Assembly: GCA_965247095.1 (NCBI GenBank)
Contig: OZ251997.1
Span: 2,176,001 to 2,240,000, forward strand
DNA from: Candidatus Multivorans sp.
GTDB lineage: Bacteria; Acidobacteriota; Thermoanaerobaculia; Multivoradales; Multivoraceae
Direction: 5' to 3'
Length of the DNA stretch: 64,000 nucleotides
The position numbers and the translations under genes were made by a program. How positions within the stretch are numbered: the first letter of the stretch is position 1; the number at the start of each line of letters is the position of its first letter. Below are positions 29,482 through 48,829 of this stretch, one piece after another. The notes under the pieces are model-generated. The model made no database searches, was not told the origin of the DNA, and worked only from the letters and a program-made list of their open reading frames with translations.

Positions 29482-32400
29482 CTACGGCGCGCAACTCTCC
29501 GGAAACGCCTTCCCGTCCGTGATCGCCGGCGCCGGGTGACCCGGCTCGTTGCGGTACTCCTTCGCCGTTCCCGTCACGGTGTCCGTGACCCGGATCGAAT
29601 AGCCCAGGTCCGTCGTCGACGCCGCGTACACCCATACATGACCGTTCAGCGCACAACCGTCCAGCACCTTGATCAGGACTTCCCAGTTCTCCCGGTTGAA
29701 GAACCGGAACAGGCCCGAGTCGTTGGTCCCTGCATGAACCACGCTGCCGCTGCCGCTCTTGCCGTCACCGGTCCACCAGTCGACAACGACGGTGTGCCGC
29801 GAATCCTGAAGGCACAGAGTCTCCCCGTCCGGCTCGCAACTGCCCGCCGGATCGCTCGCCACCACCAGGAGGTCCCGGCTCGCCGCGGACTCCGCACCCA
29901 GGCCGGAAACCACGAGATCGACCCGGTAGAAACCCGGCGAAGACCACGAGTGCTCCGGATCGCGCTCGCTCGACCGGAATCCATCGCCGAAGTCCCAGCT
30001 CCTCCCGGCCACCGTACCGCTGCTCAGGTCGCGGAACGTCACCTCGACGCCGGTGCGAACAACACACAGATCCTCCCCGCAGTCAGCGTTCAGTTCGAAC
30101 TGCGCCGCCGGCACAGGCCCCGCCTCGACTTCGACCGTCTCCGTCGCCGCGGCGAACTCGCAGAACTGGTCGACGCAGTCGCCGCCGCGCGCGACCTCCA
30201 GCCGCACCGTGTACGAACCGGGCTCGACGTACGTGTGCGACGGCTGCGACATCGTGCTCGGATGCGCGATCATGGCGCCGTCGCCGAAGTCCCAACTGTA
30301 GCTCTCAGCACCGCTTGAAGCGCTGCCGTCGAACGGCACGGGCACTCCCGTCTCCACCATCGACGGCGCCGCGAAGTTGGCCGCCAGGGGATCGGCGTCT
30401 GATGGAGGCGATGGAGGCGGGGGAGGCGGAGGCGGTGGAGGAGGAGGTGGAGACGGTGGAGGAGGCGGTGGAGACGGTGGAGGAGGCGGTGGAGACGGTG
30501 GAGGAGGCGGAGGCGGTGGCGGGCTCGCGCAGGCGACGCCGTTTCCGCCCGAACCTGTCGCCGTGCGATTCGTCACTCCCGTCCCGTCGTTGAGCGCGGC
30601 CTTGCCGACAAGATCGCGAAGTGGACTCGCGTTGGGCGTGTAACCCACCCCAACCTGCTCACCCGGACCCACCGCCGCGGCGAGCGTCAAGGTCACGTTC
30701 GCGCCGCTGATATCGACCGCACTGGCGGAGGTGCATCGCTCACCGCCATCGATCTCAACGACGAAACCGCCGGAATCGCGGGCGGCTGGATCCAGGGCCT
30801 CGGTGAACTCTACGATAAGCGTTGCGCCGTCGACCGAGCCTCCACCCCGCATGTACGGCCTGATCCCATCCACCTTGTGGCCCGACTGGGTGGCCAGCTC
30901 CGGGTGCGGGACGTTGACAACCCGGTTCGTGCCGTCCTCGATCACACCGCCGTTGAGCGCGATCACGCCCGCCTCGACGCTCAGACCGTCTTCGTCTTCA
31001 TCGCCTATGGGCGGCGCCTCGCGGCCGAGCAGGCGGAGGATCGTCACGAAGAATGCATCTGCGCCCACGGCGACCGTGTAGCTGAAGGTCAGCGCCGCCG
31101 AGCCCGAACCGCCGGCATAGACGGCTTCATGGGGACGAGAGCCCACCGCCAGCAGGATCGATGGCGCGCCGTTCGTCGTGTCCACGGTCACGTCCCGGTC
31201 GAACGTCAGGATCGCGTCGATCGCATCGCCGCCGGCATAGGTGTCGTCCGCGCCCGGCGCCGAACCGATCGCCACCGTCCGGACATTCGCGGCGTCCGGG
31301 TCAATAACCGGAGGAGGCGGCGGTGGCGTGTTGTTCTCCACGTAGGAAGATCCCACCTCCAGCGCTTCGTTGCCGAGGAGATCCCGAATTGGCGTCGTGC
31401 CGGGCACATAGGAGACCCACACGCTGTCGTCGTGCTCGATCGGCGTGTCGAGCGTCAAGGTGACGGCAGTTCCTGTCACGTTGACATGGGTCACGACTCG
31501 AAAATCATCCACCCGTCCACCGTCTACCGAGAGGTCCGCCGGATCCGGGATCGAGGACTCGTCGAGCGCTTCGACGAAGGAGATCGTGAGCGTGTCGCCG
31601 CTGAGCTCCGAGCGGCCACGCATCGTCGGGCCGACACCGTCCACCTTGTGCCCGGACTGCACCGGAAGCTCTGGGTGAGCGAGGTCGGCGTTGTTGTCGG
31701 TCGCGTTCCGGATCGTGCCGCCGTTCAACGCGATGCGACCCGCCTCGACACTCAAGCCGTCGGCGTCCTCGTCGCCCACGGTCAATGACCTGTTGGAGTG
31801 ATTGTTCAGAAAGACCGCGGCAAGGGGCGGGTACCCCTCGGCCACCGTGTGACGGAAGGTCAACGTCGCGGCGCCCGAGCCCTCCTCGTAGCCGGCATGC
31901 CTTGCCAGATCACCAACCATCAGACGGAGGGACGGCCTGCCGCTCGTCGTATTCACAGTCACGTTGTCATCGAAGGTCACCGTCACGTCGATGTCATCGC
32001 CACCCGCGTAGATGCCGTCCGATCCCGGGGTCGATCCGATCGCCATCCCGGTGACACTCGGTCCAAGAGGGTCAGGGGCCGGCTCAGGCGCCGCTGGCGT
32101 TTCGTTTGTCACCGCTGTGCCGGGAATCAAGAACGCCGCGTTGCCTGCCAGATCCCTCAGGGATGTCGAGTAGGCCACGGCGATCGATACTCCGTCTCCG
32201 TGGCTCACGGCGGGGTCGAGCGTCAGACTCACCGCGTTCCCAGCCAGCGCGACATCCGACACCGTGCGGTCATTGCCTCCGACCGTCACCGTGAAGACAC
32301 TCGCAGCCGGCGATACGGTGGAATCGAACTCTTCGCGGTAGACGAGCGTCAGCGCGGCGCCGTTCACCACCGGATCGAGCAGCAGACCAGGGCTGACGGA

Positions 32401-32976
32401 GTCCACTTTGTGACCGGACTGGGCCGGCAGTGCCGAGTACGCGAGATCGGCATCCTCGTTCAGGACGTTCCTGATCGTGCCTCCGTTCAGCGCAATCGTG
32501 CCGCCCTCGATACTCACGCCGTCGGTGTCCTCGTCGCCTGTCGTTTTGCTCAGGCCGAGATTGCCAGAGACGAGACGCGCCACATCCGGTGGATCGGAGG
32601 CCCATCTCAACCGATGCCCGAACACCAGCGCCGCCGTTCCGGAACCCCGGTCGTACTCCGCCAAGCGCGTCTCATCGCCCACCGTCAAGGCGATCGACGG
32701 TGTGCCGTCGTCGACGTTCACCGTCACGGTTTCATCGAACGTGACCGTCACCTCGATCACGTCGTGGCGCGTGTAGTAGCCGTCCGCCCCCGGATCCGAC
32801 GTGATCGCGATGCTGTTGACGCTTGCCGCTTGAGCGACTGCCTGGGGCTCCGGGCGGCGACCGTTCACTTGGCTGGACTGAGCTACTGCCTGTCCCTGCA
32901 TGAGGCAAATCGCCAGAGCGGCGAGCACGGCAGGACCCAGCATCCCCCCTCCGGTTCGCTTGCTCCACTTCCGCAT
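29482..32976 (-). CDS. Large surface protein: 3x (Ig-like + SwmB-like) repeats, poly-Pro linker, 2 PKD domains, C-terminal shared four-Cys domain
   Basis: Signal peptide; three ~255-aa tandem units each containing SGHKVD; PKD motifs YSWDFGDG and RSWDFGDG; terminal FFNRENWEVLIKVLDGCALNGHVW. Confidence 0.82.
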   Translation of the reverse strand: MRKWSKRTGGGMLGPAVLAALAICLMQGQAVAQSSQVNGRRPEPQAVAQAASVNSIAITSDPGADGYYTRHDVIEVTVTFDETVTVNVDDGTPSIALTVGDETRLAEYDRGSGTAALVFGHRLRWASDPPDVARLVSGNLGLSKTTGDEDTDGVSIEGGTIALNGGTIRNVLNEDADLAYSALPAQSGHKVDSVSPGLLLDPVVNGAALTLVYREEFDSTVSPAASVFTVTVGGNDRTVSDVALAGNAVSLTLDPAVSHGDGVSIAVAYSTSLRDLAGNAAFLIPGTAVTNETPAAPEPAPDPLGPSVTGMAIGSTPGSDGIYAGGDDIDVTVTFDDNVTVNTTSGRPSLRLMVGDLARHAGYEEGSGAATLTFRHTVAEGYPPLAAVFLNNHSNRSLTVGDEDADGLSVEAGRIALNGGTIRNATDNNADLAHPELPVQSGHKVDGVGPTMRGRSELSGDTLTISFVEALDESSIPDPADLSVDGGRVDDFRVVTHVNVTGTAVTLTLDTPIEHDDSVWVSYVPGTTPIRDLLGNEALEVGSSYVENNTPPPPPPVIDPDAANVRTVAIGSAPGADDTYAGGDAIDAILTFDRDVTVDTTNGAPSILLAVGSRPHEAVYAGGSGSAALTFSYTVAVGADAFFVTILRLLGREAPPIGDEDEDGLSVEAGVIALNGGVIEDGTNRVVNVPHPELATQSGHKVDGIRPYMRGGGSVDGATLIVEFTEALDPAARDSGGFVVEIDGGERCTSASAVDISGANVTLTLAAAVGPGEQVGVGYTPNASPLRDLVGKAALNDGTGVTNRTATGSGGNGVACASPPPPPPPPPSPPPPPPSPPPPPPSPPPPPPPPPPPPPSPPSDADPLAANFAAPSMVETGVPVPFDGSASSGAESYSWDFGDGAMIAHPSTMSQPSHTYVEPGSYTVRLEVARGGDCVDQFCEFAAATETVEVEAGPVPAAQFELNADCGEDLCVVRTGVEVTFRDLSSGTVAGRSWDFGDGFRSSERDPEHSWSSPGFYRVDLVVSGLGAESAASRDLLVVASDPAGSCEPDGETLCLQDSRHTVVVDWWTGDGKSGSGSVVHAGTNDSGLFRFFNRENWEVLIKVLDGCALNGHVWVYAASTTDLGYSIRVTDTVTGTAKEYRNEPGHPAPAITDGKAFPESCAP
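30413..30522 (-). repeat. Coding poly-proline/Ser low-complexity repeat (SPPPPPP)n
   Basis: Tandem GGAGGCGGT/GGAGACGGT units on the + strand, encoding the proline linker. Confidence 0.9.
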
Positions 32977-33035
32977 CGGCCGCCGCGTCGTGGCAAAGGC
33001 ACCGTACCACGCACCTGCGAGTCGCTCTGCGCCAG

Positions 33036-34094
33036 CTACCGGTTCGGGCCGCGTTCCATCGGCACCGGCTGCCAGCGTTCGAGTTCCACCCTGGGCAGCA
33101 CCGTGGGGTTGACGCAACTCATCGGCCAGCGGCCGGAGAGCGCCAGGGCCACCTCGCGGCCGACACGACGACGCGTCTCCGGACGCATGCGGGTCGTGGC
33201 CGAGGCGACGTGGGGCGTCAGGATCACGTTATCCATCGCCAGCAGCGGGTTGTCCTTGGCCGGAGGTTCCCTCTCCAGCACGTCGAGTGCCGCGGCGGCA
33301 ATCTGCTTCGTCTCGAGCGCCTCGATCAGAGCCCCCTCGTCGACCGTCGGCCCGCGGCCGGCGTTGATCACGACGGCGGTCTCCTTCATCGCCTCGAACT
33401 GGGGGCCCGAGAGCATGTGCCGGGTCTCATGGTTGAGCGGTGGGTGCATCGACAGGTAGTCGGACCGTTCCAGCAGCTCGCCGAAGCCGACCGGCTCGAC
33501 GCCTTCGCCGGTCATCTTCAACTCGCTGACGTAGGGGTCGTGGGCGATCACGTGCATACCGAAGGGCCTGGCGCGGCGGGCGACCGCCCGCGCCACGTTG
33601 CCGAACGAGATCAGGCCGAGCGTCTGTCCCCACAGCCGCGGCACGTCGTTCAGCAGAGGCCGGCCCTGGAACCAGTCGCCGCGCCTGACCATGGAGTCCA
33701 TTTCGCGCATCCGTCGCGCACCGGCGAGCAGCAGGGCCATCGTGTGGTCGGCGACCTCCTCGATGAACACATCGGGCACGTTCGTGACGACGATGCCCGC
33801 TTCGGTCGCGGCCTCGACGTCGACCATGTCGACCCCGACACTGCCGACACCGATGACGATGCACTCGTCCAGCCCCGCGATCACCGACCGGGAAATGCGA
33901 AAGCCCCACGACGTGATGACGGCAGCCGCATCGGAGGCCTCGGCCAGGAACTCCTCTTCCGTCTTCGCCGCGACCTCGACCAGCTCCGCCACCGGCAGCA
34001 GAGCCTCCAGCTCGAAGTGGTACCGCGTCTCGACCGACGCCGCCTTGGCGATGCCGGACAGTTGGACGACGACCTTCTGCTTCTTCACGATCAA
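33036..34094 (-). CDS. D-2-hydroxyacid dehydrogenase (CtBP-like)
   Basis: VGVDMVDV, TNVPD..EEVADH, INAGRG, LDVLEREP and LTPHVA. TTG start coupled (TTGA). Confidence 0.88.
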   Translation of the reverse strand: MIVKKQKVVVQLSGIAKAASVETRYHFELEALLPVAELVEVAAKTEEEFLAEASDAAAVITSWGFRISRSVIAGLDECIVIGVGSVGVDMVDVEAATEAGIVVTNVPDVFIEEVADHTMALLLAGARRMREMDSMVRRGDWFQGRPLLNDVPRLWGQTLGLISFGNVARAVARRARPFGMHVIAHDPYVSELKMTGEGVEPVGFGELLERSDYLSMHPPLNHETRHMLSGPQFEAMKETAVVINAGRGPTVDEGALIEALETKQIAAAALDVLEREPPAKDNPLLAMDNVILTPHVASATTRMRPETRRRVGREVALALSGRWPMSCVNPTVLPRVELERWQPVPMERGPNR

Positions 34095-35752
34095 GCCTCC
34101 GGCGAGGCGAGTTCGCCCACCGCCCACTCACGCAGTCCGTTGTAGTCGGCCTTGCCATTCGCCGCCCGTCCCACGCTGTCTCGCACCAGGACACGCTTGG
34201 GCGCCTTGTAGGACGCCAGTTCCCGCTTCACCCAACCGATCACATCCGGCTCGCTGAACCGCTCCGGAGCGTCGAGTTCGACCACGGCCGTCACCGCCTG
34301 CCCGAAGCGCTCGTCCGGCACTCCGACACAGACCGCATCCCGCACCGAGGGGTGGGTCTTCAGCACCTCCTCGACCTCCTCCGGGAAGATCTTCTCGCCG
34401 CCGCTGTTGATGCACGCGGAACCGCGGCCGTAGAGCTTGAGCGAGCCGTCCTCTTCGACGGTCGCGTAGTCCCCGGCCATCGAGTAGCGCACGCCGTCGA
34501 CTTCGACGAACATGGCCGCCGTCTTCTCGGGGTCCTTGTAGTACCCGAGCGGGATATGCCCGGTGACGGCGATCCGGCCCAGGACCCCCGAACCCGGTTC
34601 GACTTTCCTGCCGTCGTCGTCGAGCACGCTGGCGTTGTCGCCGAGCACAAAGGACGCCGTCTCGCTGGCCTCGCCGGCGGTCGAGTCCGAACGCCCCATG
34701 CCGATCGACTCCGACGACCCGAGGCTGTCCGTCAGCACCGTCTCCGCCGGGCAGTAGCGCAGGAAGCTGCGCTTGACCTCGGCGCTCCACATGGCGCCGG
34801 AGGACACCACGACCTCGAGGCTCGAGAGATCGAAACGGCCGGGCTGCTCATCGAGCGCCAGGACCATCGGCCGGGCGAAGGCGTCGCCCACGATCGCCAT
34901 CGCGTTGATCCCCTCGGCGGTGATCGCCTCGAGAGTGGCCACCGCGTCGAAGCGGCGGTTGGCGAGGGTGACCACACAGCCGCCGTTCAGCATGCCGCCC
35001 AGCGCGGTGAGGAACCCCGTGCCGTGCATCAGGGGGCAGGCGGGCAGCGAAATGCGCCGCATCAGGAGTTCGTCGAACTGGGGTTTCAGGCCTTCGACGC
35101 CGCCCGACAGGTCGAAGGGGTCGAGGCGGCCGTCGTTGCTGATCTGCCACAGGTCGTCCAACCGCCACATGACGCCCTTCGGCATACCGGTCGTGCCGCC
35201 GGTGTACAGCAGCCACAGGTCGTCGCCGCTGCGCGGCCATGGGGCTTCGAAGGCCAGGGAGTCGCCGGCGGCCGGCGACTGCGCCGCCGCCTGCTCGTAG
35301 GGAATCGCCCACTCCGGACAGGGCCCCGAACCGTCGTCGACCCACAGCCAGGTGTGAATCGCCTGCATCCTGGCCCTCAAAGCCTCGATCCGCGAGGCGA
35401 AACAGCCGTGGAAGACGACCGCCACCACATCCGCGTTGTCCCAGAGATAGAGCAGTTCGCCCTCAACGTAGCGGTAGTTCGTGTTGACCGGCACCAGGGA
35501 GGCCTTGAAGCAGGCCAGCGCCGACTCCAGGTACTCGGGCACGTTGTAAAGGTACTGCGCCACCTTGTCCTGGCGCTTGACGCCGCGCTCGATCAGCGTC
35601 GCCGCCACGCCGTTCGCGCGCCGATGCATTTCGGCCCGCGAGTAGCGGCGGCTCGGGCCGCCGCCCAGGGGATCGATGAAGGCTTGCGCCGGGGCCTCCG
35701 GCTGGTGCTCAGCGATCGCTTCGAGAATGTCCGCGTGATGCCAGTCGCTCAT
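34091..35752 (-). CDS. Acyl-CoA synthetase (FadD19-like AMP-binding enzyme)
   Basis: YTGGTTGMPKG, PLMHGTG, GRGSACINSGGEKIFPEEVE and GKADY. Confidence 0.92.
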   Translation of the reverse strand: MSDWHHADILEAIAEHQPEAPAQAFIDPLGGGPSRRYSRAEMHRRANGVAATLIERGVKRQDKVAQYLYNVPEYLESALACFKASLVPVNTNYRYVEGELLYLWDNADVVAVVFHGCFASRIEALRARMQAIHTWLWVDDGSGPCPEWAIPYEQAAAQSPAAGDSLAFEAPWPRSGDDLWLLYTGGTTGMPKGVMWRLDDLWQISNDGRLDPFDLSGGVEGLKPQFDELLMRRISLPACPLMHGTGFLTALGGMLNGGCVVTLANRRFDAVATLEAITAEGINAMAIVGDAFARPMVLALDEQPGRFDLSSLEVVVSSGAMWSAEVKRSFLRYCPAETVLTDSLGSSESIGMGRSDSTAGEASETASFVLGDNASVLDDDGRKVEPGSGVLGRIAVTGHIPLGYYKDPEKTAAMFVEVDGVRYSMAGDYATVEEDGSLKLYGRGSACINSGGEKIFPEEVEEVLKTHPSVRDAVCVGVPDERFGQAVTAVVELDAPERFSEPDVIGWVKRELASYKAPKRVLVRDSVGRAANGKADYNGLREWAVGELASPEA

Positions 35753-36084
35753 GGGCGAAGGAATCTAGCACTCGCGCCCTCATCGGCCGAAACGACTTGC
35801 TCCTGTAGCCGACAACCACGTCAACGTCGCTTCGGCAGCCCCGCGTCTGGCCTTGTCAGCGATCTCTCGTCTTCCTTCGCCCTGAGGCTCCCTCCCACCA
35901 GAGTCTCCCGAACCCAGAACCCCCGCAAAACTACGGGCCTCCTAGTGTCGGGTACCGACTCGCGGGCCCTTCCTACCCCCGCTCTCGTCTCAGCCCTGGC
36001 GCCGCTCGAACATGGCGTCGCTGAACGACGGGCAGGGTCCATGCAAACGGCCAACAACTCCGGCGAGTCGGAAGGAAAGCGACA

Positions 36085-37260
36085 ATGCGTGCCCAAGAAA
36101 CGAAAGAAAGAAAGCGAAACCGATCGAAGTCCAGCCTTGGGCGGCCAACCTGTCTAGCGACCCTGCCTGCGCTAGTGGCCTTGGCGGTTTCGGCCCCTCT
36201 CGCCGCGCAGCAGGGGCGGGATCTGTTGGCTTGGGAAGAACCGCTCCAGATCCGCGGCGAGCAGGTCTTCGTCAAGGAGGCCGTCGGCGCCGTGGCCGTC
36301 TATGAGGTCGGCGACCTCTCGTCCGTCCATGCGACGGCGTCCGAACCCACCGGGGTCGCTTCTGCCGCCACCACGGAGTACAAGTACGACGATGGTACAC
36401 CGGAGTCGTTCACTCGCATCACGAATGCTCATGAACAGGAGTACGCACAGCGATTCCGATTGCCTCGTGCCGGTACCGTCACTTCTGGGACGGTGTCTTT
36501 CGTCCTGACGTTTTACCGCAACTCCGGTGGGCGACCAGGAAGTCAGTTGGCATCGTACTCGGCGACGGCTTCTGGCCTGACCAGAGGCAGTGGGACCTGC
36601 GTATCGGTCGACAGAGGCGACATCACCCGGCAGCGGCTTGCCAGCGGCGATACATGGCTGACCGTCCGGTGGACGAACTCAAGCGGCAAGTTCTTCGCCG
36701 AGGATCGCAACGGACCAGGCGGCACGAGCAACTTCTGGCGGGCCCGATCCTCATCAGGAAGTAGCTGGGGTTCATGAAACGCCGAGACGGTAGCTACGGC
36801 GTACTTCATCCGCCTGGGGGTGGACCACGGCGGAAGCACGCCCGACCCAGACCCGGACCCGGACCCGGATCCGGACCCGGAGCCGCCTCCAATCACCGGC
36901 TGCACTCCAACGACGACGGCGCTCCAGTTCGACGGCGGCTACAAAGTCAGCATGTGCTACCGCACGCCCGCGGGAGAAGAAGGTCAGGCCAAGTCCGGCG
37001 TCTGGGCCTCCGGCCAGTCCGGCATCCTGTGGTTCTTCAACCGGGACAACGCAGAGGTTCTGGTGAAGGTGCTCGACGGCTGTGCCCACAACGGCTACCG
37101 CTGGGTCTTCGTGGCGCCGGTCACAACTGTGGAGTTCAACCTCTGGGTAACGGGTCCGAACGGCGACCGCTGGACCCATAGCAACCAGCAGAATGTGACG
37201 GCGGCAACCAAGAGCGATACGTCGGCATTCAAGTGCGCCGACGAACCCGATGGAGGGTAG
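36085..37260 (+). pseudogene. Secreted protein (YDDG-type beta domain + (PD)n linker + shared four-Cys domain) interrupted by an in-frame TGA at 36775-36777
   Basis: ORFs 36085..36777 and 36820..37260 are in the same frame. The junction reads SSWGS*NAETVATAYFIRLGVDHGGSTPDPDP. Confidence 0.75.
36841..36882 (+). repeat. (Pro-Asp)n linker hexamer repeat
   Basis: Tandem CCGGAC/CCGGAT units. Confidence 0.9.
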
Positions 37261-37288
37261 AAGGGTGACGGCGGGTACTTGGGTGGAG

Positions 37289-37355
37289 ACCCGCAGGTGA
37301 AACCGGAGGCGGGCCCTCCGCTGCTGGCGGAGGGAAACCGTGTCCGGTTGCGGGT
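37289..37355 (+). other. Nested intergenic inverted repeats (possible structured RNA leader or terminator)
   Basis: ACCCGC/GCGGGT, AACCGGA/TCCGGTT and CCCTCCGC/GCGGAGGG nest around a TGCTG loop. Confidence 0.5.
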
Positions 37356-37381
37356 AGGACAACGCCGCTAGGACGGCGAAC

Positions 37382-40300
37382 GTGAGATCGAAAAACCGCA
37401 GCACTGCGCGTTTTGTCGGAATGGTGGCCATGCTGGCGTTCGCCGGCGCCTCACTTGCGCGTGCCGAGACCGTCTTGAGCAGCGGTGAATACAGCGACTG
37501 CACGCCGAGCGCGGCGGCGTTGGTGTTCGATGGCGGCTACAGCGTGAGTCTTTGCTATGAAACGCCGGAAGGGCTTGTAGGCGAGGGTCGGGCCGGGATC
37601 TGGGCATCGGGCGAGTCGGGGCTGATGTGGTTCTTCAGTCGCGAGAACGCGGAGATGCTGGTCAAAGTGCTCAACGGCTGCGCCCACAACGGCTACCGTT
37701 GGGTGTTCGTGGCGCCCGTAACCGATGTGGCGTTCAACCTGCAGGTCACGAGCAGCCGCGGCAACCGTTGGCTCCACCGGAACAGACTGGGTGACACCGC
37801 GGCGACCAGCAGCGACATCACGGCGTTCGAATGTGAGACGAACGACGCGTACGGGGCGGATCTGACCGTCCGTTCGGTGTCGGTCCGCGACGCCGACCTC
37901 CGGCCGAGAGACTCCTTCACGCTGCGAGTGGTCATCGAGAATCGCGGCGCCAGCGAGGCACCCCCCACCACCCTCAGCTACTACAGTTCGCGGGATTCCA
38001 CGATCACCGTGAACGACCGAGCGGTCGGCACGGACTTGGTGAGGGGTCTCGCCGCGTCCGAGACAAGTACGAACTCGATCAGGTTGACGGCCCCGTCGAC
38101 CGCCGGTACCTACTACTACGGCGCCTGCGTCGACTCCGTGTCAGACGACGGGAACACCGCGAGCCACTGTTCTGACGCCGCCGCCGTCAAGGTGAGCGTT
38201 CCCGAGGCGCCGCCCGGGCTTGAGAGCGAAGTCGACATGGAGGTCGCCTCAGGCGATACGACCACCTGGTTCGTTGGGGTGGCGAACGCCGCCGGCGATC
38301 TGTACAGCTTCGGCTCATGGTCAGACCACGAAGACATCGCCGTCGTGGAGCAGGTGAGAGGTTCAAGATCGGAGCGATTGCTCCTTGTCACAGGAAAGAA
38401 GGCCGGAACGGCAACCATCACGGTTGTGGCCGCCAACAGCCGAGGCGAACCGTCGGGACTCTCGACCTTCGATGTGCGGGTCACGTCGCCCACTTCCGCG
38501 GCACCTGCTCTTGAGGTCGGGCGAGGCGACGACGCGCTCGATGTCGCGTTCCGCACCACGTTGCGGCCCTTGGAAACGCGGGCCTACGACTATCAGATTC
38601 GGCGGCGGAGACCCCAAACCGCATGGGCCGATGTGGGGTGTCAGCCGGTTCGCAACTCGTCGAACAGCGAAGCAACCGGTTCCGTCTCAACCGCGATCAG
38701 CGGGCTTCGGGCCGGTACAACCTACGAAGTGCGGTACCGATCCCGCCGCACCGCATCATGCGACACCGGTTCGCCCGACATCTGGTCGTCGGTGGGTACG
38801 GGCACGACGAGCGGCATCCCGATCAATGACCCGCCGACGTTCCCCGCCACCACTCCGGCGACCGTCTCGGTGAACGAGAACGCCGGCGAAGACATCAATG
38901 TAGGCCTCCCCGTCGCCGCCGTCGACCCCGACGGCGCCCGGGACATCCTCACCTACAGCTTGAAGGGACAGGACGCGGAGAGCTTTCGGGTCGTTCCCGA
39001 AACCGGGCAAATCCGCACCCGTAGCGGTCGCACCTACGACTTCGAGGCTCGGGACACCTACAACGTCACGGTGGAGGCGCGGGATGTGCATGACGAGACG
39101 GCGAGCTTCCCGGTCATGATCGAGATCCTGGACCTCGAGCAGGGTTGCTCCGCACCGCCGAGGCTACGCCTCAATCCCCAAGACCGGCTACTCGTCGTGC
39201 GATGGGATCCACTGGAGGACGACGACGAAACAGCCCCGGTGCAGGGCTACGAGATCGAGGGGCGCACCGGCTCGAATGGCGCCTGGGGCAACCGTGTCGT
39301 CGTCAGGGGGCGGGAGAAGGACCTCGTGTACTTGTCCGGGCTTACGAACCTCCAACGCTATGACGTTCGAATCCGTCCCTTCGGCCCGGAGGGGGATTGC
39401 GATTGGTCCGCACCGGTGTCCGGAATTCCGCAAACGGATCGGTCGCCGCTGGACCGCGAGGACTTTCAGGATCGGCTAGGGCCCGGCGGCAGGCTCAGCG
39501 ACCGGCGTTTCCTGGCAACCGGCAGGTTCAGCGAAGAGACAGACGGCCGGCGTGTCCACGGCAGCTACCACTACGAGAAGACCGGTCCCGACCGGAGCCT
39601 GATTACCCTCGAGTACGACGAGATCGGCCGCTCCGGCTGTTCGCTCTCCCTCTTGTTCTCCTCGCTTACCGCCGGTTCGTTCCTGGACGAATGCAAGGGC
39701 GCCGGTGTGAATACCGGCTTCGACCTCGAGGAGCCGCCACCGGAACCGGAGAATCTCGCACCGCGGAACCAGACGGAGTTCGGGAAACTGGTCCAGGGCA
39801 AGCAGTTCCTACCCGGCCTTCAGATTGGCGGTCGGTATCGCAACCGTAGCGGTACGGTGTCCATCGCTCTTGGTACCGACGCGGTGGTGCATTCGAGACC
39901 CTCAGGTGATGAAGAACGCCCTGTGAGGTCTCGCTTCGGGGGCCATGAATACGAACGTGTCGGCGCCAACACGGCTCGACTCGTCCTGTGCTTCGGACGT
40001 TTTGGATCGTGTAGCCCGGAATTGGACGAGCGGTGGATCTTCGATCTCGAGTTCATCTCCAGCGACGCAGCGAAATACACCGTCACGATTCACCGTAAGG
40101 GTCATGCGCCGCTCACGTTGGACGGGTTCATCGACTTCGGGAGCGGTGACTACCTCAGCAACTTCCCTCCGGAACTCGTACCGCCCGGCCACCCGCCCCA
40201 GGCTGCCGGCCGAGATCTGTTGGGTGTCGACGCCGCGACCGGTTCGACCTCACTGAGCATCGGCGCGGACTCGTTTCAGACCATTCTGCTGCGCGGCGAC

Positions 40301-40843
40301 GGAATCCAGGACATCGCGTACAGCCCCGGCGACTGGCTGGAGCCGAAGGATGGCGGCAATCAGCGGATGATGATCGTCGGGTCGGGCCCGGCGGCAGCGA
40401 AGTTCGCCGCCGCCAGCGGCGACAGAGCGCCAGGCCACGACGCAGTCGGGCCCGTCTTCGTTTCCAACGAGCAAGCGAATGTGACCGCACTGACAGTCGT
40501 CTGCATGCAGTTCGGAAGGGGAATCCCCATTCGCGGATCGAGGTACTTCTCGCAGCCAAAGGCGCCCAGTGGGGCCGTTCGAGCCTGCCAGCGCGACTGC
40601 GTTCGACGGGGTCTTGACCGCGTACAGGCCTGCGTATGGACCTGCGAGACGACCAACGCCGCATCGGCGGCGCCGGCTCTGAAGACCTCCGGTGGCGGAG
40701 TGCTGCCGCTTCAGCCACTACGCAAGGGCATCGAGTCGTTTGAGAACCTCGCCAGAGGAAAGCTGGCCGAGGCAGGCAGGGTGGAACCGCTGCCGGCGCC
40801 AGCCCCTTCGAGATTCCGCGCCGATCCGAGACGCAGGCATTGA
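37382..40843 (+). CDS. Large secreted multidomain protein: N-terminal shared four-Cys domain, CARDB, Ig-like, FN3, cadherin, FN3, unknown Cys-rich C-terminus
   Basis: Signal peptide; CARDB (DLTV..TAPSTAGTYYYGACVD); FN3 (GLRAGTTYEVRYR, GLTNLQRYDVRIR); cadherin (NDPPTF..SVNEN..DPDG..YDFE). Confidence 0.8.
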   Translation: MRSKNRSTARFVGMVAMLAFAGASLARAETVLSSGEYSDCTPSAAALVFDGGYSVSLCYETPEGLVGEGRAGIWASGESGLMWFFSRENAEMLVKVLNGCAHNGYRWVFVAPVTDVAFNLQVTSSRGNRWLHRNRLGDTAATSSDITAFECETNDAYGADLTVRSVSVRDADLRPRDSFTLRVVIENRGASEAPPTTLSYYSSRDSTITVNDRAVGTDLVRGLAASETSTNSIRLTAPSTAGTYYYGACVDSVSDDGNTASHCSDAAAVKVSVPEAPPGLESEVDMEVASGDTTTWFVGVANAAGDLYSFGSWSDHEDIAVVEQVRGSRSERLLLVTGKKAGTATITVVAANSRGEPSGLSTFDVRVTSPTSAAPALEVGRGDDALDVAFRTTLRPLETRAYDYQIRRRRPQTAWADVGCQPVRNSSNSEATGSVSTAISGLRAGTTYEVRYRSRRTASCDTGSPDIWSSVGTGTTSGIPINDPPTFPATTPATVSVNENAGEDINVGLPVAAVDPDGARDILTYSLKGQDAESFRVVPETGQIRTRSGRTYDFEARDTYNVTVEARDVHDETASFPVMIEILDLEQGCSAPPRLRLNPQDRLLVVRWDPLEDDDETAPVQGYEIEGRTGSNGAWGNRVVVRGREKDLVYLSGLTNLQRYDVRIRPFGPEGDCDWSAPVSGIPQTDRSPLDREDFQDRLGPGGRLSDRRFLATGRFSEETDGRRVHGSYHYEKTGPDRSLITLEYDEIGRSGCSLSLLFSSLTAGSFLDECKGAGVNTGFDLEEPPPEPENLAPRNQTEFGKLVQGKQFLPGLQIGGRYRNRSGTVSIALGTDAVVHSRPSGDEERPVRSRFGGHEYERVGANTARLVLCFGRFGSCSPELDERWIFDLEFISSDAAKYTVTIHRKGHAPLTLDGFIDFGSGDYLSNFPPELVPPGHPPQAAGRDLLGVDAATGSTSLSIGADSFQTILLRGDGIQDIAYSPGDWLEPKDGGNQRMMIVGSGPAAAKFAAASGDRAPGHDAVGPVFVSNEQANVTALTVVCMQFGRGIPIRGSRYFSQPKAPSGAVRACQRDCVRRGLDRVQACVWTCETTNAASAAPALKTSGGGVLPLQPLRKGIESFENLARGKLAEAGRVEPLPAPAPSRFRADPRRRH

Positions 40844-40975
40844 ACCTTCGTCTGATCGCGCCGGCCTGATCGCCTACCATCGTAGGGATCAACATCGGGT
40901 CTCAAGAAGAGCGGCCCGGTCCCGACAATGAGGCCCCATACTGGAAGCTGGGCCATGAAGAAGGAGGTTCTGGCC

Positions 40976-42883
40976 ATGGAAAGTCCCTTCGTATCGATCC
41001 GAGGTGCGCGGAGGAGTCTCGCGGCGTCGTCGCGCACTCTCTCGACGGTTGCATTCCTGCTGGTGGCGGCACTGCCAGCCTCGGCGCAGAAGAACAACGT
41101 CATCCTGTTCGTTGGCGACGGCATGGGGGTGTCGACTGTCACCTCCACTCGCATTGCGACGGTTGGCGTCGACGGGGAGCTGGCTCTTGACCGCATGCCG
41201 TACACCGCCATCTCACGGACCGCGTCGGCCGACTACATCACCCCCGACAGCGCGGCCACGATGTCGGCGATGATGACCGGCGTCAACACGAATTCGGGCG
41301 TGATCGGCTACGGCGCAACCACCGAGTACGGTGACTTCAACGGCAATGGCAACGGCCAGCGATTGACCAACATCGGCGAGTTGGCCACAGCCCGCGGCTA
41401 CGCGGTCGGGATCGTCACGACGACGCGCGTCACCCACGCGACGCCGGCGGCCGTGTTCGCACATGTAAACGACCGCAACCTGGAGAATGAGATCGCCGCG
41501 CAGATGGTGCCGGGCGGAGGGGGCTACAACGACAGACTCGGCCAGGGGCTCCACGTCATCTTCGGAGGCGGCAGGCGGCACTTCCTCCCCACCTCGGCGA
41601 CCGACGAGGAGGGGAGCCCGGGAAGTCGAGCGGACGGCCGCGACCTGCGAAACGAGCTGCAGCAACGGGGTTACACCTACGCCTGGAACCGTCAGGGGCT
41701 CAACGCGCTGGGCGGTTCCGGACGCGCGGTCGGTCTGTTCGCCTCGAGTCATCTGGCGTACGAAGCGGACCGGAACAGCGACCAGCCGAGCCTGGAGGAG
41801 ATGACGAGGAAGGCGATCCAGATTCTGGGCGCAACGGGAAAGCCGTACTTCCTGATGGTCGAGGCGGGCCGAATCGACCACGCACACCACGAAGGGAATG
41901 CCTTTCGCGCCTTCACCGACACCCGGATGTTCGATCGCGCGATCAACGCCGGACAGCGTAGCGTCAATCTCAACAGAACGCTGATCCTCGCGACGGCCGA
42001 CCACAGCCACGTCTTCACGATCGCCGGCTACCCGATGCGACCGCTCACCGATCTGAGCTACAACCCCCGCTCGGTGCCCGCGTCGTTCCGCAACCAGCCA
42101 CACAACGGCATCCTGGGGACGGTCCACGACATGGACAGCGGCGGGACGATCTCGGAGAGCGGAGACTCGGGGGGCATTCCCTACACGATCCTGGGCTACG
42201 CCAACGGGCCGGGACATCGGAGCGGTTCGCGCGTCAATCCGAACAGCGACAGGACGGCCGGCTACGGTGGCGCCGTTCCTTCGAGCAGCAGCGACTCGGC
42301 ATACCGGCAGGAGGCAACCGTCCCGCTGTTCTTAGAGACGCACGCCGGCGAAGACGTGATGATCTACGCGGTCGGCCGCACAGCGGAGAACGTGCGCGGC
42401 ACCGTGCCCAACACGAAGGTGTTCGACTGGATCAGAGACGGCTTCGCCGGGAGGGGCGGTACCCGCCCGCCTCAACCGGACCCGGACCCGGATCCGGACC
42501 CGGATCCGACCCCGGATCCGCCGTCTCAGTCCGAAGTCTGCACGCCGACTACCGCGGCGCTTCAGTTCGACGGCGGTTACGAGGTCAGCATGTGCTACCG
42601 GACCCCCAGCGGGGAGGAGGGTCAGGCCAAGGCCGGCGTCTGGGCATCCAGCCAGTCCGGCATCCTGTGGTTCTTCGACCGCGTCAACGCCGAGGTCCTC
42701 GTCAAGGTACTCGACGGCTGTGCGAACAACGGGCATCGCTGGATCTTCGTGGCGCCGGTGACCACACTGGAGTTCAACCTCTGGGTGACGGGTCCCGACG
42801 ACGGGCCGCCCTGGACGCATACGAACCGGCAGGGCGCAACCGCCGTCACGAAGAGCGACCTGATGGCGTTCCCCTGCCAATAG
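40976..42883 (+). CDS. phoA: Alkaline phosphatase (PhoA family) with (PD)n linker and C-terminal shared four-Cys domain
   Basis: NVILFVGDGMG, active site PDSAAT, THATPAA, VEAGRIDHAHH, TADHSH and ETHAGEDV. AAGGAGG RBS before ATG 40976. Confidence 0.9.
   Translation: MESPFVSIRGARRSLAASSRTLSTVAFLLVAALPASAQKNNVILFVGDGMGVSTVTSTRIATVGVDGELALDRMPYTAISRTASADYITPDSAATMSAMMTGVNTNSGVIGYGATTEYGDFNGNGNGQRLTNIGELATARGYAVGIVTTTRVTHATPAAVFAHVNDRNLENEIAAQMVPGGGGYNDRLGQGLHVIFGGGRRHFLPTSATDEEGSPGSRADGRDLRNELQQRGYTYAWNRQGLNALGGSGRAVGLFASSHLAYEADRNSDQPSLEEMTRKAIQILGATGKPYFLMVEAGRIDHAHHEGNAFRAFTDTRMFDRAINAGQRSVNLNRTLILATADHSHVFTIAGYPMRPLTDLSYNPRSVPASFRNQPHNGILGTVHDMDSGGTISESGDSGGIPYTILGYANGPGHRSGSRVNPNSDRTAGYGGAVPSSSSDSAYRQEATVPLFLETHAGEDVMIYAVGRTAENVRGTVPNTKVFDWIRDGFAGRGGTRPPQPDPDPDPDPDPTPDPPSQSEVCTPTTAALQFDGGYEVSMCYRTPSGEEGQAKAGVWASSQSGILWFFDRVNAEVLVKVLDGCANNGHRWIFVAPVTTLEFNLWVTGPDDGPPWTHTNRQGATAVTKSDLMAFPCQ
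42476..42520 (+). repeat. (Pro-Asp)n linker hexamer repeat
   Basis: Tandem CCGGAC/CCGGAT units, as at 36841. Confidence 0.9.
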
Positions 42884-42932: not shown

Positions 42933-45900
42933 CTACATGCTGCGGCGGTATTCGCCGCCAACCCGATACAGCGCGTCCGAGATCTGACCGAGCGAGCAGT
43001 GCTTCACCGACTCCATCAGCTCCTCGAACACGTTGCCGCGCCGCCGCGCCACCTCCTGTAGTTGCGCCAGGGAGGCATCGGAGTTCTCGCCGTGGCTGCG
43101 GTGGAAGGCGGCCAGGCTGTCGATCTGCTGCTGCTTCTCGTCGTCCGTCGAGCGGATGAGTTCCGCCTCGACGGTCTCCGCGAACTCCTGGCCCTCAGCC
43201 AGGAACGTGTTGACGCCGACCACCGGCAGGCTGCCGTCGTGCTTCTTCGCCTCGTACTCCATGCTCTCGTCCTGGATCTTCGAGCGCTGGTACATCGTGT
43301 CCATCGCCGCCAGCACGCCGCCGCGCTCGGCCAGGCGATCGAACTCCAGATAGACCGCCTCTTCGACCGCGTCGGTGAGCTGATCGAACGCGAAGGACCC
43401 CTGCCAGGGATTCTCGCTCCGGTTGAGCCCGAACTCCCGGTTGATGATCATCTGGATCGCCAGCGCCCGGCGCACCGACTGCTCGGTGGGCGTCGTGATC
43501 GCCTCGTCGAACGCGTTCGTGTGCAGGGAGTTGCAACGGTCGAGGATGCCGTAGAGCGCCTGCAGCGTGGTGCGGATGTCGTTGAACTGGATCTCCTGCG
43601 CGTGCAACGAGCGGCCTGAGGTCTGGATGTGGTACTTCAGCATCTGGCTGCGGGCCGAGGCGCCGTAGCGTTCGCGCATCGCCCGCGCCCAGATGCGGCG
43701 GGCCACCCGGCCGATCACCGCGTACTCGGGGTCCATGCCGTTCGAGAAGAAGAACGAGAGGTTGGGCGCGAAGTCGTCGATCTCCATGCCCCGAGCCAGG
43801 TAGTACTCGACGATCGTGAAGCCGTTGGCGAGCGTGAACGCCAACTGGGTGATCGGGTTCGCGCCGGCCTCGGCGATGTGGTACCCGCTGACCGAGGCGC
43901 TGTAGTAGTTGCGGACGTTGTGGTCGATGAAGTACTGCTGGACATCGCCCATCATCCGCAGCGAGAACTCGGTCGAGAAGATGCAGGTGTTCTGCGCCTG
44001 GTCCTCCTTGAGGATGTCGGCCTGGACGGTGCCCCGGACCCGGCTCAGAGCCGCCGACCGGATCCGCTCGTAGACCTCGCGCTCGACCACCTCGTCGCCC
44101 GAGATGCCGAGGAGCGCCAGCCCCACGCCGTCACTGCCTTCCGGCAGTTCGCCCCGATAGACCGGAACGTCGCCTTCGTGGCGGCGGTCGATCTCGGCGC
44201 GCGCGCGCTCGAGCCCGACCGTCTCCCGCAGGTGACGCTCCACCTGCTGGTCGATCGCGGCGTTCATGAAGAAGGCGAGGATGGTCGGCGCCGGGCCGTT
44301 GATCGTCATCGACACCGAGGTCGCCGGATCGCACAGGTCGAAACCCGAGTACAGCCGCTTGATGTCGTCGACGGTGGCGATCGAAACCCCCGAGTTGCCG
44401 ACCTTGCCCCAGATGTCGGGCCGGACCCCCGGGTCCGAGCCGTAGAGCGTGACCGAGTCGAACGCGGTCGACAGCCGGTTGGCCGGCTGCCCGCGCGACA
44501 CGTAGTGGAAGCGGCGGTTCGTGCGTTCCGCGATCCCCTCGCCCGCGAACATCCGCGTCGGTTCCTCAGAGCGGCGCCGGTACGGATAGACGCCGGCGGT
44601 GTACGGATAGGCGCCCGGCAGGTTGTGCTTCGAGAGGAAGCGCAGCAGGTCGCCCCAGTCCGAGTACTCGGGCAGCGCCAGCTTCGGCATCCGCAGATGA
44701 CTCAGGGTCGTGACGTAGTTGTCGCCGGTGACCTCGCGCCCGCGGACGGGGTAGCTGTAGCGTTCCGAGCGGGCAGCCGCCGCACGTTCGGGCCACTGTC
44801 GCAGGAGTTCGGCGGCCTCGCCGCCGACTCCCCCGAGAGCGTCCTGGTAGCGCCGGCGCAGGCGCAGGACGCTCTCGTCGGGCGCCGTCTCGAGCGCTCC
44901 GTCGGCAAACGCCGCGAGCGGTTCGGGAAGCTCCGGATCGTCCAGTTCGGCCAACGCCCGGTAGCAGCTCTGTGCTCTCTGGGCGGCCGCCGATCGGCGC
45001 TCGATATCCGCTTCCGCCCCACGCGCGGCCTCCGCGATCTCCGCCAGGTAGCGGCTGCGGTTGTCGGGGATCAGGACGGCAGCACGCGGCTCGCGCTCGT
45101 CCAGGTCGATCTCCGGCGTCCAGGCCGCCTCGTCCAGGTCGAGCCGCTCCCGCAACTGCCGGCAGACGTTCCAGAACATCCAGTTGACGCCGGGATCCTG
45201 GAACTGGCTGGCGATCGTCGGGTAGACGGGCACGTCCTCGTCGGCGGTCTGGAAAGCCAGCCGGTTGCGGCGCCACTGCTTGCGCACGTCGCGGAGTGCG
45301 TCCTGGGCGCCCCGGCGATCGAACTTGTTCAGCACGATGACATCGGCGAAGTCGAGCATGTCGATCTTCTCGAGCTGACTGGCCGCCCCGTAGTCCGAGG
45401 TCATCACGTAGACCGACAGGTCGACCAGATCGACGATCTCACTGTCGCTCTGACCGATGCCCGCGGTCTCGACCAGGACCAGGGAAAACCCGGAGGCCTT
45501 GAGCAGAGCGATCGCGTCGCCCAGCACCTCGCTGGTGGCGAGATGCTGCCGGCGCGTCGCCATCGAGCGCATGAACACCCGGTCGCTGCGCAGGCTGTTC
45601 ATGCGAATGCGGTCGCCGAGCAGGGCGCCGCCGGTGCGCCGCCGCGTCGGGTCCACCGCGAGGACGGCGATCCGCATCCCGTCTCCGGTTGACGGGAAGC
45701 ACTCCACGAAGCGGTTCAGCAGCTCGTCGGCGACGCTGCTCTTGCCCGAGCCGCCGGTGCCGGTGAGCCCCACCACCGGTACCCCGGCGCCGGCGAGTTG
45801 CCACTCCTTGCGCAGCCGTCGCAGCTCGGACTCGTCCACCGCGCCGCGCTCGGTCGCCGACAGCAGCCGGGACAGGTCGCCGTCGCCGCCGGGGTCCGAG

Positions 45901-46397
45901 GCCACCCGCACGCGGAACCGCGGCTCGGGCGCGGCCCGGCGCTTCGCATGCGCCCGCTCGACGACATCGTCGATCATCGCCGGCAGGCCCATCCTCAACC
46001 CGTCGTCCGGGTGGTAGATGCGCTCGACGCCGTAGGCCTGCAGCTCCGCGATTTCCCCGGGCGTGATCGTGCCGCCGCCGCCGCCGAAGACCAGCACGTG
46101 ACCGGCGCCCTCCTCCGCCAGACGATCGATCATGTAGCGGAAGAACTCCATGTGGCCGCCCTGGTACGAGCTGATGGCGATCGCGTCGGCGTCTTCCTGC
46201 ACGGCCGCGCGCACGATTTCGTCGACGCCGCGGTTGTGGCCCAGGTGAATGACCTCGGCGCCACGGTCCTGGATCATCCGCCGCATGATGTGGATCGCCG
46301 CGTCGTGACCGTCGAACAGCGACGCCGCGGTCACGAAGCGCAGCGGACTCGCATCCCGGTCGGGACGAAGACTGCGCCTTGGTTCGGGTGTGGTCAT
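42933..46397 (-). CDS. icmF: Fused isobutyryl-CoA mutase / MeaB-type GTPase
   Basis: B12-binding SLFDGHDAAI, P-loop GTGGSGKSS, ETAGIGQSD, NKFD, and mutase domain RLSTAFDSVTLYG and GTVQADILKEDQAQN. Confidence 0.95.
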   Translation of the reverse strand: MTTPEPRRSLRPDRDASPLRFVTAASLFDGHDAAIHIMRRMIQDRGAEVIHLGHNRGVDEIVRAAVQEDADAIAISSYQGGHMEFFRYMIDRLAEEGAGHVLVFGGGGGTITPGEIAELQAYGVERIYHPDDGLRMGLPAMIDDVVERAHAKRRAAPEPRFRVRVASDPGGDGDLSRLLSATERGAVDESELRRLRKEWQLAGAGVPVVGLTGTGGSGKSSVADELLNRFVECFPSTGDGMRIAVLAVDPTRRRTGGALLGDRIRMNSLRSDRVFMRSMATRRQHLATSEVLGDAIALLKASGFSLVLVETAGIGQSDSEIVDLVDLSVYVMTSDYGAASQLEKIDMLDFADVIVLNKFDRRGAQDALRDVRKQWRRNRLAFQTADEDVPVYPTIASQFQDPGVNWMFWNVCRQLRERLDLDEAAWTPEIDLDEREPRAAVLIPDNRSRYLAEIAEAARGAEADIERRSAAAQRAQSCYRALAELDDPELPEPLAAFADGALETAPDESVLRLRRRYQDALGGVGGEAAELLRQWPERAAAARSERYSYPVRGREVTGDNYVTTLSHLRMPKLALPEYSDWGDLLRFLSKHNLPGAYPYTAGVYPYRRRSEEPTRMFAGEGIAERTNRRFHYVSRGQPANRLSTAFDSVTLYGSDPGVRPDIWGKVGNSGVSIATVDDIKRLYSGFDLCDPATSVSMTINGPAPTILAFFMNAAIDQQVERHLRETVGLERARAEIDRRHEGDVPVYRGELPEGSDGVGLALLGISGDEVVEREVYERIRSAALSRVRGTVQADILKEDQAQNTCIFSTEFSLRMMGDVQQYFIDHNVRNYYSASVSGYHIAEAGANPITQLAFTLANGFTIVEYYLARGMEIDDFAPNLSFFFSNGMDPEYAVIGRVARRIWARAMRERYGASARSQMLKYHIQTSGRSLHAQEIQFNDIRTTLQALYGILDRCNSLHTNAFDEAITTPTEQSVRRALAIQMIINREFGLNRSENPWQGSFAFDQLTDAVEEAVYLEFDRLAERGGVLAAMDTMYQRSKIQDESMEYEAKKHDGSLPVVGVNTFLAEGQEFAETVEAELIRSTDDEKQQQIDSLAAFHRSHGENSDASLAQLQEVARRRGNVFEELMESVKHCSLGQISDALYRVGGEYRRSM

Positions 46398-48550: not shown

Positions 48551-48829
48551 ATGAACGACCTCGAAACGCTCCGCTTCGAACTGGCCGACAACGTCGCCCG
48601 GGTGACCTTCAACCGGCCCGACGCCGGCGCCGGGTTCTCGGTCGCCTCCGGCCCGACCTGGGCGTTCGGCGCCGCGAAGGAACTCGTCATGCGCTCGTTC
48701 TCTGAAGACCTCGAGTCGCAGATGGAGTTCGAGTCGCAGGCCATCGCCGACTCGGCCCGAACCGAGGACGCCGCGGAGGGCATCGCGGCCTTCTTCGAGA
48801 AACGCCGGGCAACCTTCCGTGGCCGCTGA
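48551..48829 (+). pseudogene. Enoyl-CoA hydratase/isomerase remnant with in-frame internal deletions
   Basis: 92 aa made of N-terminus (VARVTFNRPDAG), mid motif AGFS and C-terminus (ASGPT..AKEL...EDAAEGIAAFFEKRRATFRG). Most of the crotonase core is missing. Confidence 0.8.

Follow-up and report, generated by a model that had tools for sequence, protein, structure and literature searches.

The C-terminal domain (CTD) of the type IX secretion system (T9SS) of Bacteroidota (Por_Secre_tail, TIGR04183/PF18962) is a beta domain of ~100 residues that is carried by dozens of secreted proteins per genome, usually as their last element and in many cases after PKD or Ig-like stalks. SLH domains and carbohydrate-binding modules (CBMs) are non-covalent wall- and glycan-binding modules that stand N- or C-terminally, often in tandem and on flexible linkers, on many exoenzymes; in dockerin-cohesin pairs, a small linker-borne module gathers the enzymes of the cellulosome at one place; and PPC (PF04151) and PKD tails are small C-terminal beta domains of secreted proteases. 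A further case is TIGR03437, which we take to be an uncharacterized C-terminal domain of Solibacter and a TIGRFAM of the lineage-specific paralogous type. Here we describe a domain with four conserved cysteines that occurs in four genes across 13.4 kb of a stretch of 64,000 nucleotides from Candidatus Multivorans sp. (contig OZ251997.1, positions 2,176,001 to 2,240,000 of the forward strand); this whole stretch is referred to as the window, and its positions are numbered from its first letter. In usage, the domain resembles the T9SS CTD, SLH domains, CBMs and dockerins; it belongs to none of them because neither the family models nor the fold match and, in the case of tags that are strictly C-terminal, its positions do not fit.

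We interpret this element as an undescribed, probably disulfide-stabilized and extracytoplasmic accessory domain of ~118 residues with a predicted all-beta fold that is greatly expanded in Thermoanaerobaculia-type Acidobacteriota. As for its function, the architecture of the carriers leads us to favor, tentatively and as plausible rather than probable, a model in which the domain may serve as a non-catalytic extracytoplasmic targeting or retention module and not as a cleaved C-terminal tag.

Four copies of one domain in four different genes

Translation of the open reading frames (ORFs) places the same domain, a segment of ~118-122 residues, in four genes of the window (Table 1). A profile built from the four copies and searched against the six-frame translation of the entire 64-kb window, for which every stop-to-stop frame of at least 40 amino acids was used, matched exactly four frames at E-values of 5e-59 to 5e-69, and the next-best match had an E-value of 0.54. 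A preliminary description of this DNA, made from the letters and ORF translations, had listed four occurrences of the domain and proposed that a profile be built from them; that profile recovers these four and no others, with boundaries within ~12 bases of the earlier figures. The core motif, the leading CxP, the second early cysteine and the terminal AF..C given there are all present in the alignment of the four copies (A1), in which 35 columns are invariant and the mean column identity is 67%.

Relative to the copy on the alkaline phosphatase, the other three copies have amino acid identities of 77%, 60% and 35%. At the nucleotide level, the window copies are 50-78% identical, and we therefore regard them as old paralogues and not as recent repeats; recent duplication or gene conversion among them is ruled out by the same figure. 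The copies fall into two subtypes that differ in the place of the second cysteine, which follows the first by 8 residues in subtype A (copy 1) and by ~18 residues in subtype B (copies 2-4). The three C-terminal window copies terminate in AFPESCAP, AFKCADEPDGG and AFPCQ.

A large family outside the described domain families

When searched against a library of 1.84 billion representatives of 50%-identity protein clusters, the four-sequence profile matched 9549 cluster representatives at E<=1e-3, 8146 at E<=1e-10 and 2670 at E<=1e-30. The domain rarely stands alone: a length-restricted search returned only 15 proteins of 64-207 amino acids, most of which cover part of the domain. In agreement with the preliminary description, whose authors knew of no assigned function, the domain lies outside every Pfam or NCBIfam family. 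No Pfam or NCBIfam model covers it on the four window carriers; when 76 aligned copies were scanned singly at E<=10, no Pfam family was matched by more than two of them, and all 76 stayed below the cut-off of every NCBIfam/TIGRFAM model. Two groups of candidates raised by these scans were rejected, i.e. the lectin family FB_lectin, which matched two of the 76 copies and only at E>=0.025, and the PKD, Big and fn3 families, of which PKD models match the segments upstream of the domain but not the domain itself and BigA_N alone matched a copy (1/76, E 0.2). Profile searches of PDB sequences gave a best E-value of 0.039, and the nearest clusters in the ESM Atlas are annotated as 'hypothetical protein', with Acidobacteriota as the commonest phylum and no Pfam 38.1 family in common. 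Word searches of the literature found no description of the domain, and passages of PMC13083261 on biosynthesis in Acidobacteriota make no mention of it. At least 9549 cluster representatives without a name, a Pfam or NCBIfam model or a PDB relative amount to an annotation gap, and defining the domain would allow much of the exoproteome predicted for an uncultured Acidobacteriota class to be annotated.

All 66 genome loci that were fetched are from Acidobacteriota by title (Candidatus Multivorans, 51; Thermoanaerobaculia, 7; Holophagales, 6; Acidobacteria, 2). They come from a genome scan with two narrow peptide patterns that gave at least 647 confirmed stretches. In the protein searches, for which only the best-scoring matches were listed, 12 of the 120 listed matches bear an organism name, all of them Acidobacteria, Acidobacteriota or Holophagales; with a divergent member of the family as the query, 18 of the 120 listed matches are organism-named, 14 as Acidobacteriota or Thermoanaerobaculia and four as plain 'bacterium'. 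The link to Thermoanaerobaculia, which the preliminary description had suggested, is borne out by these loci and names, and the view from sequence matches that the domain is lineage-specific to Acidobacteriota is supported but not proven.

Copy number, position and cysteine pattern

The domain is present many times in single genomes. One chromosome of 4.98 Mb has at least 26 distinct copies in the 232 kb fetched from it, and four other chromosomes have 12-19. The 66 loci gave 149 profile matches, or 143 after removal of overlaps, and, as in the window, several carrier genes often lie side by side. The 133 carrier frames counted in these loci, with overlapping loci not removed, contain one copy in 122 cases, two in eight, three in one and four in two, and 122 of the 133 frames stop no more than 15 amino acids beyond the domain.

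Among 361 stored carrier proteins, the domain is C-terminal in 247, only N-terminal in 60, only internal in 28 and at both ends in 26. One copy is present in 44 of these proteins, two in 311 and four in six, counts that are biased toward multi-copy, and in particular two-copy, proteins because the stored proteins were ranked by score. Tandem copies are separated by a median spacer of 34 residues. Both subtypes are found in all positions, with subtype A being mostly C-terminal. The preliminary description had argued from the single N-terminal copy in the window against a cleaved C-terminal tag, and this argument is strengthened by the N-terminal, internal and both-end copies as well as by the two-copy and four-copy proteins among the 361.

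Exactly four cysteines are present in 75 of the 76 aligned copies. Three of the cysteine columns are near-invariant (76/76, 75/76 and 74/76), and the fourth cysteine alternates between two places (61/76 or 15/76). The loop motifs FFxRxNxE and KVLDGC are nearly invariant over the 76 copies, which are diverse, and the domain contains no CxxC motif. A divergent tandem pair behind Spondin_N (L006:16964-17815, minus strand) has the central cysteine of KVLDGC replaced (KVLDGRA) and a cysteine elsewhere near its end, which suggests a wider superfamily with a different disulfide pattern.

Predicted structure of the domain and of tandem copies

An AlphaFold2 model of copy 4 (m30c157507a31, computed from the 76-row alignment) has a mean pLDDT of 94.8 and a pTM of 0.88, with 108 of the 118 residues at pLDDT >=90. 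The predicted domain consists of ten strands with short turns and a single helix of four residues at the DGCxxNG motif. Foldseek returned no match to this model at E<=1e-3 among 350,542 PDB chains, and none at this threshold in BFVD. The best query-normalized TM-score in the PDB search was 0.39, to antibody and T-cell receptor variable domains with an rmsd of 6-9 A, i.e. at chance level for small beta domains. The prediction is thus a candidate for a new fold relative to the PDB and a good target for structure determination.

In a model of a tandem pair from locus L031 (107-row alignment; pLDDT 90.6, pTM 0.86), residues ~125-160 are disordered and form a linker of ~35 residues. Because two independent domains of 120 residues are expected to give a pTM near 0.45, the value of 0.86 suggests that the tandem copies are placed against each other. 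Two Foldseek matches of the tandem pair at E<=1e-3 (TM-scores 0.13-0.21, rmsd 19-25 A) are not credible, and neither are those to laminin G and galectin (TM-scores 0.13-0.15, rmsd >18 A). Complex prediction for a homodimer of two copies (alignment A2) gave a score of 0.30 (mark, 0.42), which counts neither for nor against binding.

Passengers and signal-like N-termini

A Pfam scan of passengers covered 35 of the 84 complete carriers in the loci (loci L002-L022; e.g., L011:4502-10366:+). A PKD domain stands just ahead of the four-cysteine domain in 33 of the 35 and Calx-beta occurs in 18, giving a recurrent tail of the form (Calx-beta)-PKD-domain. An enzyme family is present in 19 of the 35, namely subtilase with P-domain (5), sulfatase (4), M14 carboxypeptidase (2), reprolysin-like (2), trypsin-like (2), arylsulfotransferase (2), GH92 (1) and PPDK_N (1), and the remaining carriers have cadherin, fn3, Spondin_N, He_PIG, Big_9 or SWM repeats or nothing recognizable. 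Precomputed Pfam assignments for the listed protein matches add further peptidases (leucine-rich repeats with leishmanolysin (M8), matrixin, M64, M28 and M60-like), hydrolases of alpha/beta-hydrolase and lipase types, lactonase-type propellers, ricin-type lectins, PA with Calx-beta, beta-helix repeats, VWA, endonuclease I and FGE-sulfatase. No Pfam family is common to all carriers in either list of 120 matches.

By a crude rule, which looks close to each of the first start codons for a basic residue and then a hydrophobic window of 10 residues without charge, 67 of the 84 carriers have a signal-like N-terminus. Among the other long ORFs in these loci, the figure is 114 of 262 (Fisher p 4e-9, odds ratio 5.1). 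Under a stricter rule, 163 of 244 stored proteins, a set with many truncated gene calls, have such an N-terminus. From the passengers, the four conserved cysteines and the enrichment of signal-like N-termini, we infer that the carriers are extracytoplasmic. The preliminary description had proposed a portable module on otherwise unrelated extracytoplasmic proteins and had named enrichment in secreted proteins as a test of this idea; the enrichment is present, and the variety of Pfam passengers and the four cysteines in nearly all copies point in the same direction. Of the outcomes that it had named as speaking against the idea, neither a match to a characterized catalytic or ligand-binding family nor an evidently cytoplasmic carrier was seen.

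Comparison with described sorting, anchoring and binding domains

The domain is like the T9SS CTD in its usage by the cell's secreted proteins: in both cases, a beta domain of ~100 residues is found on dozens of unrelated secreted carriers per genome, mostly as the last element and within one lineage. Unlike the T9SS CTD, the Acidobacteriota domain also occurs N-terminally, internally and in tandem. PF18962/TIGR04183 gave no match on the four carriers or the 76 copies (E<=10), the Foldseek search of PDB described above found no counterpart of the Ig-like fold of the T9SS CTD at E<=1e-3 (best TM-score 0.39), and none of the T9SS components PorK/L/M/N, SprA and PorU/V is encoded by the 21 ORFs scanned in the window. 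A relation to the PEP-CTERM/exosortase system finds no counterpart in the sequences either: no hydrophobic tail follows the three C-terminal window copies, and in 122 of the 133 locus frames there are at most 15 residues behind the domain.

SLH domains and CBMs share with our domain a usage that is independent of position, often tandem, linker-joined and spread over varied exoenzymes and surface proteins. No SLH (PF00395) or CBM family was matched by Pfam on the carriers or the 76 copies. SLH domains are helical and typically present in three copies, whereas our domain is predicted to be all-beta with one helix of four residues and is present in one, two or four copies in the 361 stored carriers; moreover, four conserved cysteines are atypical for SLH and CBM families.

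Like PPC and PKD tails, the domain is a small beta domain at the C-terminus of secreted hydrolases and lies in series with PKD; unlike PPC, it has no match to PF04151, is found on proteins other than proteases too and can be N-terminal. Two carriers (P0329 and P0331) have PF04151 in addition, as a domain apart from this one. With TIGR03437 it shares the pattern of an uncharacterized domain recurring at the C-terminal end of numerous proteins within a single lineage of Acidobacteria, but it belongs to another class of Acidobacteriota, occurs elsewhere than at the C-terminus as well and reaches the cut-off of no TIGRFAM model. Finally, it is similar to dockerin in being a small module on flexible linkers that is appended to many different enzymes; it differs in that there is no sequence similarity and that no scaffold protein was identified, and any partner would be either another copy of the domain or something else.

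Proposed role of the domain

In the model that we infer for the domain as a targeting or retention module, the carriers would be exported in a signal-peptide-dependent manner, and the domain would then fold outside the cell and form two disulfides. Attached via flexible linkers or behind a Calx-beta/PKD stalk, it would bind one common extracellular ligand, e.g., a polymer belonging either to the envelope of the producing cell or to the matrix around it, and many different activities would thereby be held in one place. Because the passengers have no common substrate, the target would more likely be such a polymer than a substrate. The domain would probably act as a pair, as tandem copies are predicted to pack together. 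Knowledge of its ligand or machinery would reveal how these bacteria organize their extracellular activities.

Several points weigh against this model. In Multivorans loci, the domain is nearly always the last element (122/133) and usually lies behind PKD (33/35), as would be the case for a sorting tag. The proposed binding is read from the architecture of the carriers, and it has no support from homology, since neither Pfam/NCBIfam scans nor Foldseek in PDB linked the domain to a known lectin or to a known family that binds carbohydrates or cell walls. The rule for signal peptides is a heuristic of our own whose background rate is high (44%), and the taxonomic range is based on 30 organism-named matches in addition to the genome scan with its two narrow patterns.

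The alternative that takes up the first of these points is that the domain is a sorting or attachment signal for a dedicated export or surface machinery of Acidobacteriota, similar to the T9SS CTD, and may be removed or covalently processed afterwards. We consider this unlikely, even though much of the architecture fits it. Most locus frames end so soon after the domain that they leave no room for another C-terminal signal, the domain follows PKD and is found on dozens of carriers per genome, the organism names seen are all Acidobacteriota or unclassified, and the passengers are exoenzymes and adhesins, i.e. the kinds of proteins that are marked by sorting tags. A signal of this type is difficult to reconcile with the 60 N-terminal, 28 internal and 26 both-end cases and the 311 two-copy proteins among the 361 stored carriers, with the N-terminal copy in the window and with homologues that extend past the domain into a cysteine-rich tail. 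In addition, there is no similarity in sequence or fold to T9SS CTDs, and no neighbor family is found in more than five of the 66 loci, although the machinery need not be linked to its substrates.

A more far-reaching variant, for which we likewise see only a limited chance, is that the domain would be the recognition or attachment handle of an undescribed Thermoanaerobaculia-type sorting or surface-display pathway, with a fold outside the PDB. Dozens of exoenzymes and adhesins would be exported across or fixed to the outer membrane by means of this handle, or would be held in a scaffold-free multi-enzyme network via pairing of the domains. If true, such a sorting or anchoring handle would represent a new system in a phylum whose surface display is little understood, and it might be used as a display tag.

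Pairing could also be the function as such, in that domains associate within or between chains to give dimers or a multi-protein surface network. The high pTM of the tandem pair despite its disordered linker, the prevalence of one, two or four copies, and the flexible (PD)n or Gly/Ser/Ala-rich linkers, which would permit docking, are in line with self-association. We nevertheless regard it as rather improbable because the reading of the pTM is indirect, the predominance of two-copy proteins is partly an artefact of the ranking, and packing of tandem copies within a chain does not imply association between chains.

Less probable still is that the domain is a passive structural element, e.g., a stabilizing cap, a spacer or a folding aid, without a ligand of its own. 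Such a role would suit a compact disulfide-rich beta domain that usually lies in line with Calx-beta and PKD stalk domains and that evolves faster than its catalytic partner (70.4% vs 90.6% identity for the alkaline phosphatase carrier). It fits poorly with the placement of the domain at chain ends on flexible linkers and not between other domains, and with one domain serving enzymes of unrelated folds; also, the near-invariant loop motifs in 76 copies and the very large size of the family suggest a specific function.

A catalytic or redox-active domain, e.g., a thiol-disulfide protein related to PA_0111/PP_0108, is very improbable. Nine of the 76 copies, namely window copy 1 and eight locus copies, do match NF058629, the only NCBIfam model with recurrent matches, in a constant register (domain residues ~23-88 on model positions 28-94), but weakly (E 0.004-0.16, ~12-17 bits): the best score is 17 bits against a cut-off of 230, and with 76 queries these matches lack significance. 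The register common to the nine copies carries no independent weight because they are mutually homologous, and the remaining 67 have no match. There is no CxxC, and the four cysteines are spaced like those of structural disulfides. A literature search for PA0111/PP_0108 found nothing on the structure of this family.

The carriers in the window and their genomic setting

The four carriers and their domain copies are listed in Table 1.

Table 1 Carrier genes and copies of the four-cysteine domain in the window
Feature	Position	Strand	Composition and remarks
Carrier 1	29482..33117	-	ORF of 1211 aa: three SWM_repeat, Big_5, poly-Pro/Ser linker, two PKD, domain (Pfam; NCBIfam swm_rep_I)
Domain copy 1, subtype A	29485..29850	-	Profile E 5e-59; extreme C-terminus of carrier 1, directly behind two PKD domains
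Carrier 2	36085..37260	+	Single-frame gene: signal-like N-terminus, ~200-aa passenger without family, (PD)n linker, domain
Domain copy 2, subtype B	36889..37248	+	Profile E 5e-69; (PD)n linker ahead at ~36838-36891
Carrier 3	37382..40843	+	1153 aa: signal-like N-terminus, domain, CARDB, Big_2 (weak), Cadherin, fn3, ~470 aa without family
Domain copy 3, subtype B	37487..37846	+	Profile E 1e-64; N-terminal, ~8 residues past the predicted signal-peptide end (ARA|E)
Carrier 4	40928..42883	+	651 aa: signal-like N-terminus, alkaline phosphatase catalytic domain (residues 56-502), (PD)n linker (~42464-42523), domain
Domain copy 4, subtype B	42527..42880	+	Profile E 3e-67; extreme C-terminus of carrier 4; copy used for the structure model

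The "very different passengers" of the preliminary description are reflected in the Pfam assignments, which comprise an SWM/PKD carrier, a CARDB/cadherin/fn3 carrier and an alkaline phosphatase carrier, and the two (PD)n linkers that it had noted are found ahead of the copies starting at 36889 and 42527. It had also ascribed Sec-type signals to all carriers. Read by eye, all four N-termini do look like signal peptides, with basic residues, then a hydrophobic segment and finally a part rich in Ala, and to this extent the assignment holds; its basis is this reading together with the crude hydrophobicity rule. For carrier 1, the true start is likely Met47 at 32979, which is followed by a signal-like stretch. 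In carrier 3, the domain begins at about residue 36, right behind the signal-like N-terminus, and the C-terminal ~470 amino acids after fn3 (39400-40843, plus strand) have no Pfam match. The order alkaline phosphatase, linker, domain of carrier 4 is kept in a related locus (L025), with amino acid identities of 90.6% for the catalytic domain, 64.5% for the linker and 70.4% for the domain and with all cysteines retained.

Carrier 2 is interrupted. The ORFs at 36085-36777 and 36820-37260 share one frame with a single TGA between them, at 36775-36777; Trp is found in place of the TGA in full-length homologues such as P0050 and P0053, and TGG in L065, a syntenic locus with 97.6% identity over 3.5 kb. 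The shared frame, the single stop and the Trp/TGG in relatives argue that carrier 2 is one gene, and the TGA would reflect either a pseudogene or a base error. Moreover, 39 nucleotides (13 codons) that L065, the closest relative, has are missing from the window at about 36490. Of the C-terminal copy that the preliminary description had placed at 36901-37236, the copy and its C-terminal place thus stand, but the gene that carries it is not intact in frame. Neither half of carrier 2 has a Pfam or NCBIfam match. Its passenger of ~200 amino acids (36085-36774, plus strand) is conserved in several homologues (QQGRDLL…YKYDDGT…AQRFRL…). Five homologues (P0103, P0048, P0052, P0054 and P0062) do not end with the domain but have, behind an acidic Gly/Asp/Asn linker, a Cys-rich tail of ~70 amino acids (…YNVGDVITTLP…YRYTC…), another module without a name that is absent from the window gene.

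The window is 91-97.6% identical in nucleotide sequence to the Candidatus Multivorans sp. loci L065, L001 and L027, and gene order is kept; the genus is classified in Thermoanaerobaculia, Acidobacteriota. The flanking genes are ordinary chromosomal genes, including those for malate/lactate dehydrogenase, ferritin, an MFS transporter, 2-hydroxyacid dehydrogenase, an enzyme of acyl-CoA ligase type, a fused methylmalonyl-CoA mutase/MeaB, sulfatases and an FGE-type enzyme. Clustering of 494 non-carrier ORFs for recurrent neighbor genes gave no family in more than five of the 66 loci, and the top families are syntenic housekeeping genes. In a plasmid collection, tblastn with copy 1 and with the divergent L006 tandem pair gave no match.

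Immediately downstream of carrier 4 lies a gene for a protein of 1154 amino acids (42933-46397, minus strand) in which a B12-binding domain, a MeaB-type GTPase and a methylmalonyl-CoA mutase are fused in an IcmF-like architecture. The enzyme of FGE-sulfatase type is encoded at 48819-49931 (plus strand), and two adjacent sulfatases at 58996-62136 (minus strand) are without the domain; domain-bearing sulfatases are common in related loci. Finally, the GC content is 0.64-0.65 at positions 36001-42000 compared to 0.66-0.73 in most of the remaining window, and this region coincides with carriers 2-4.

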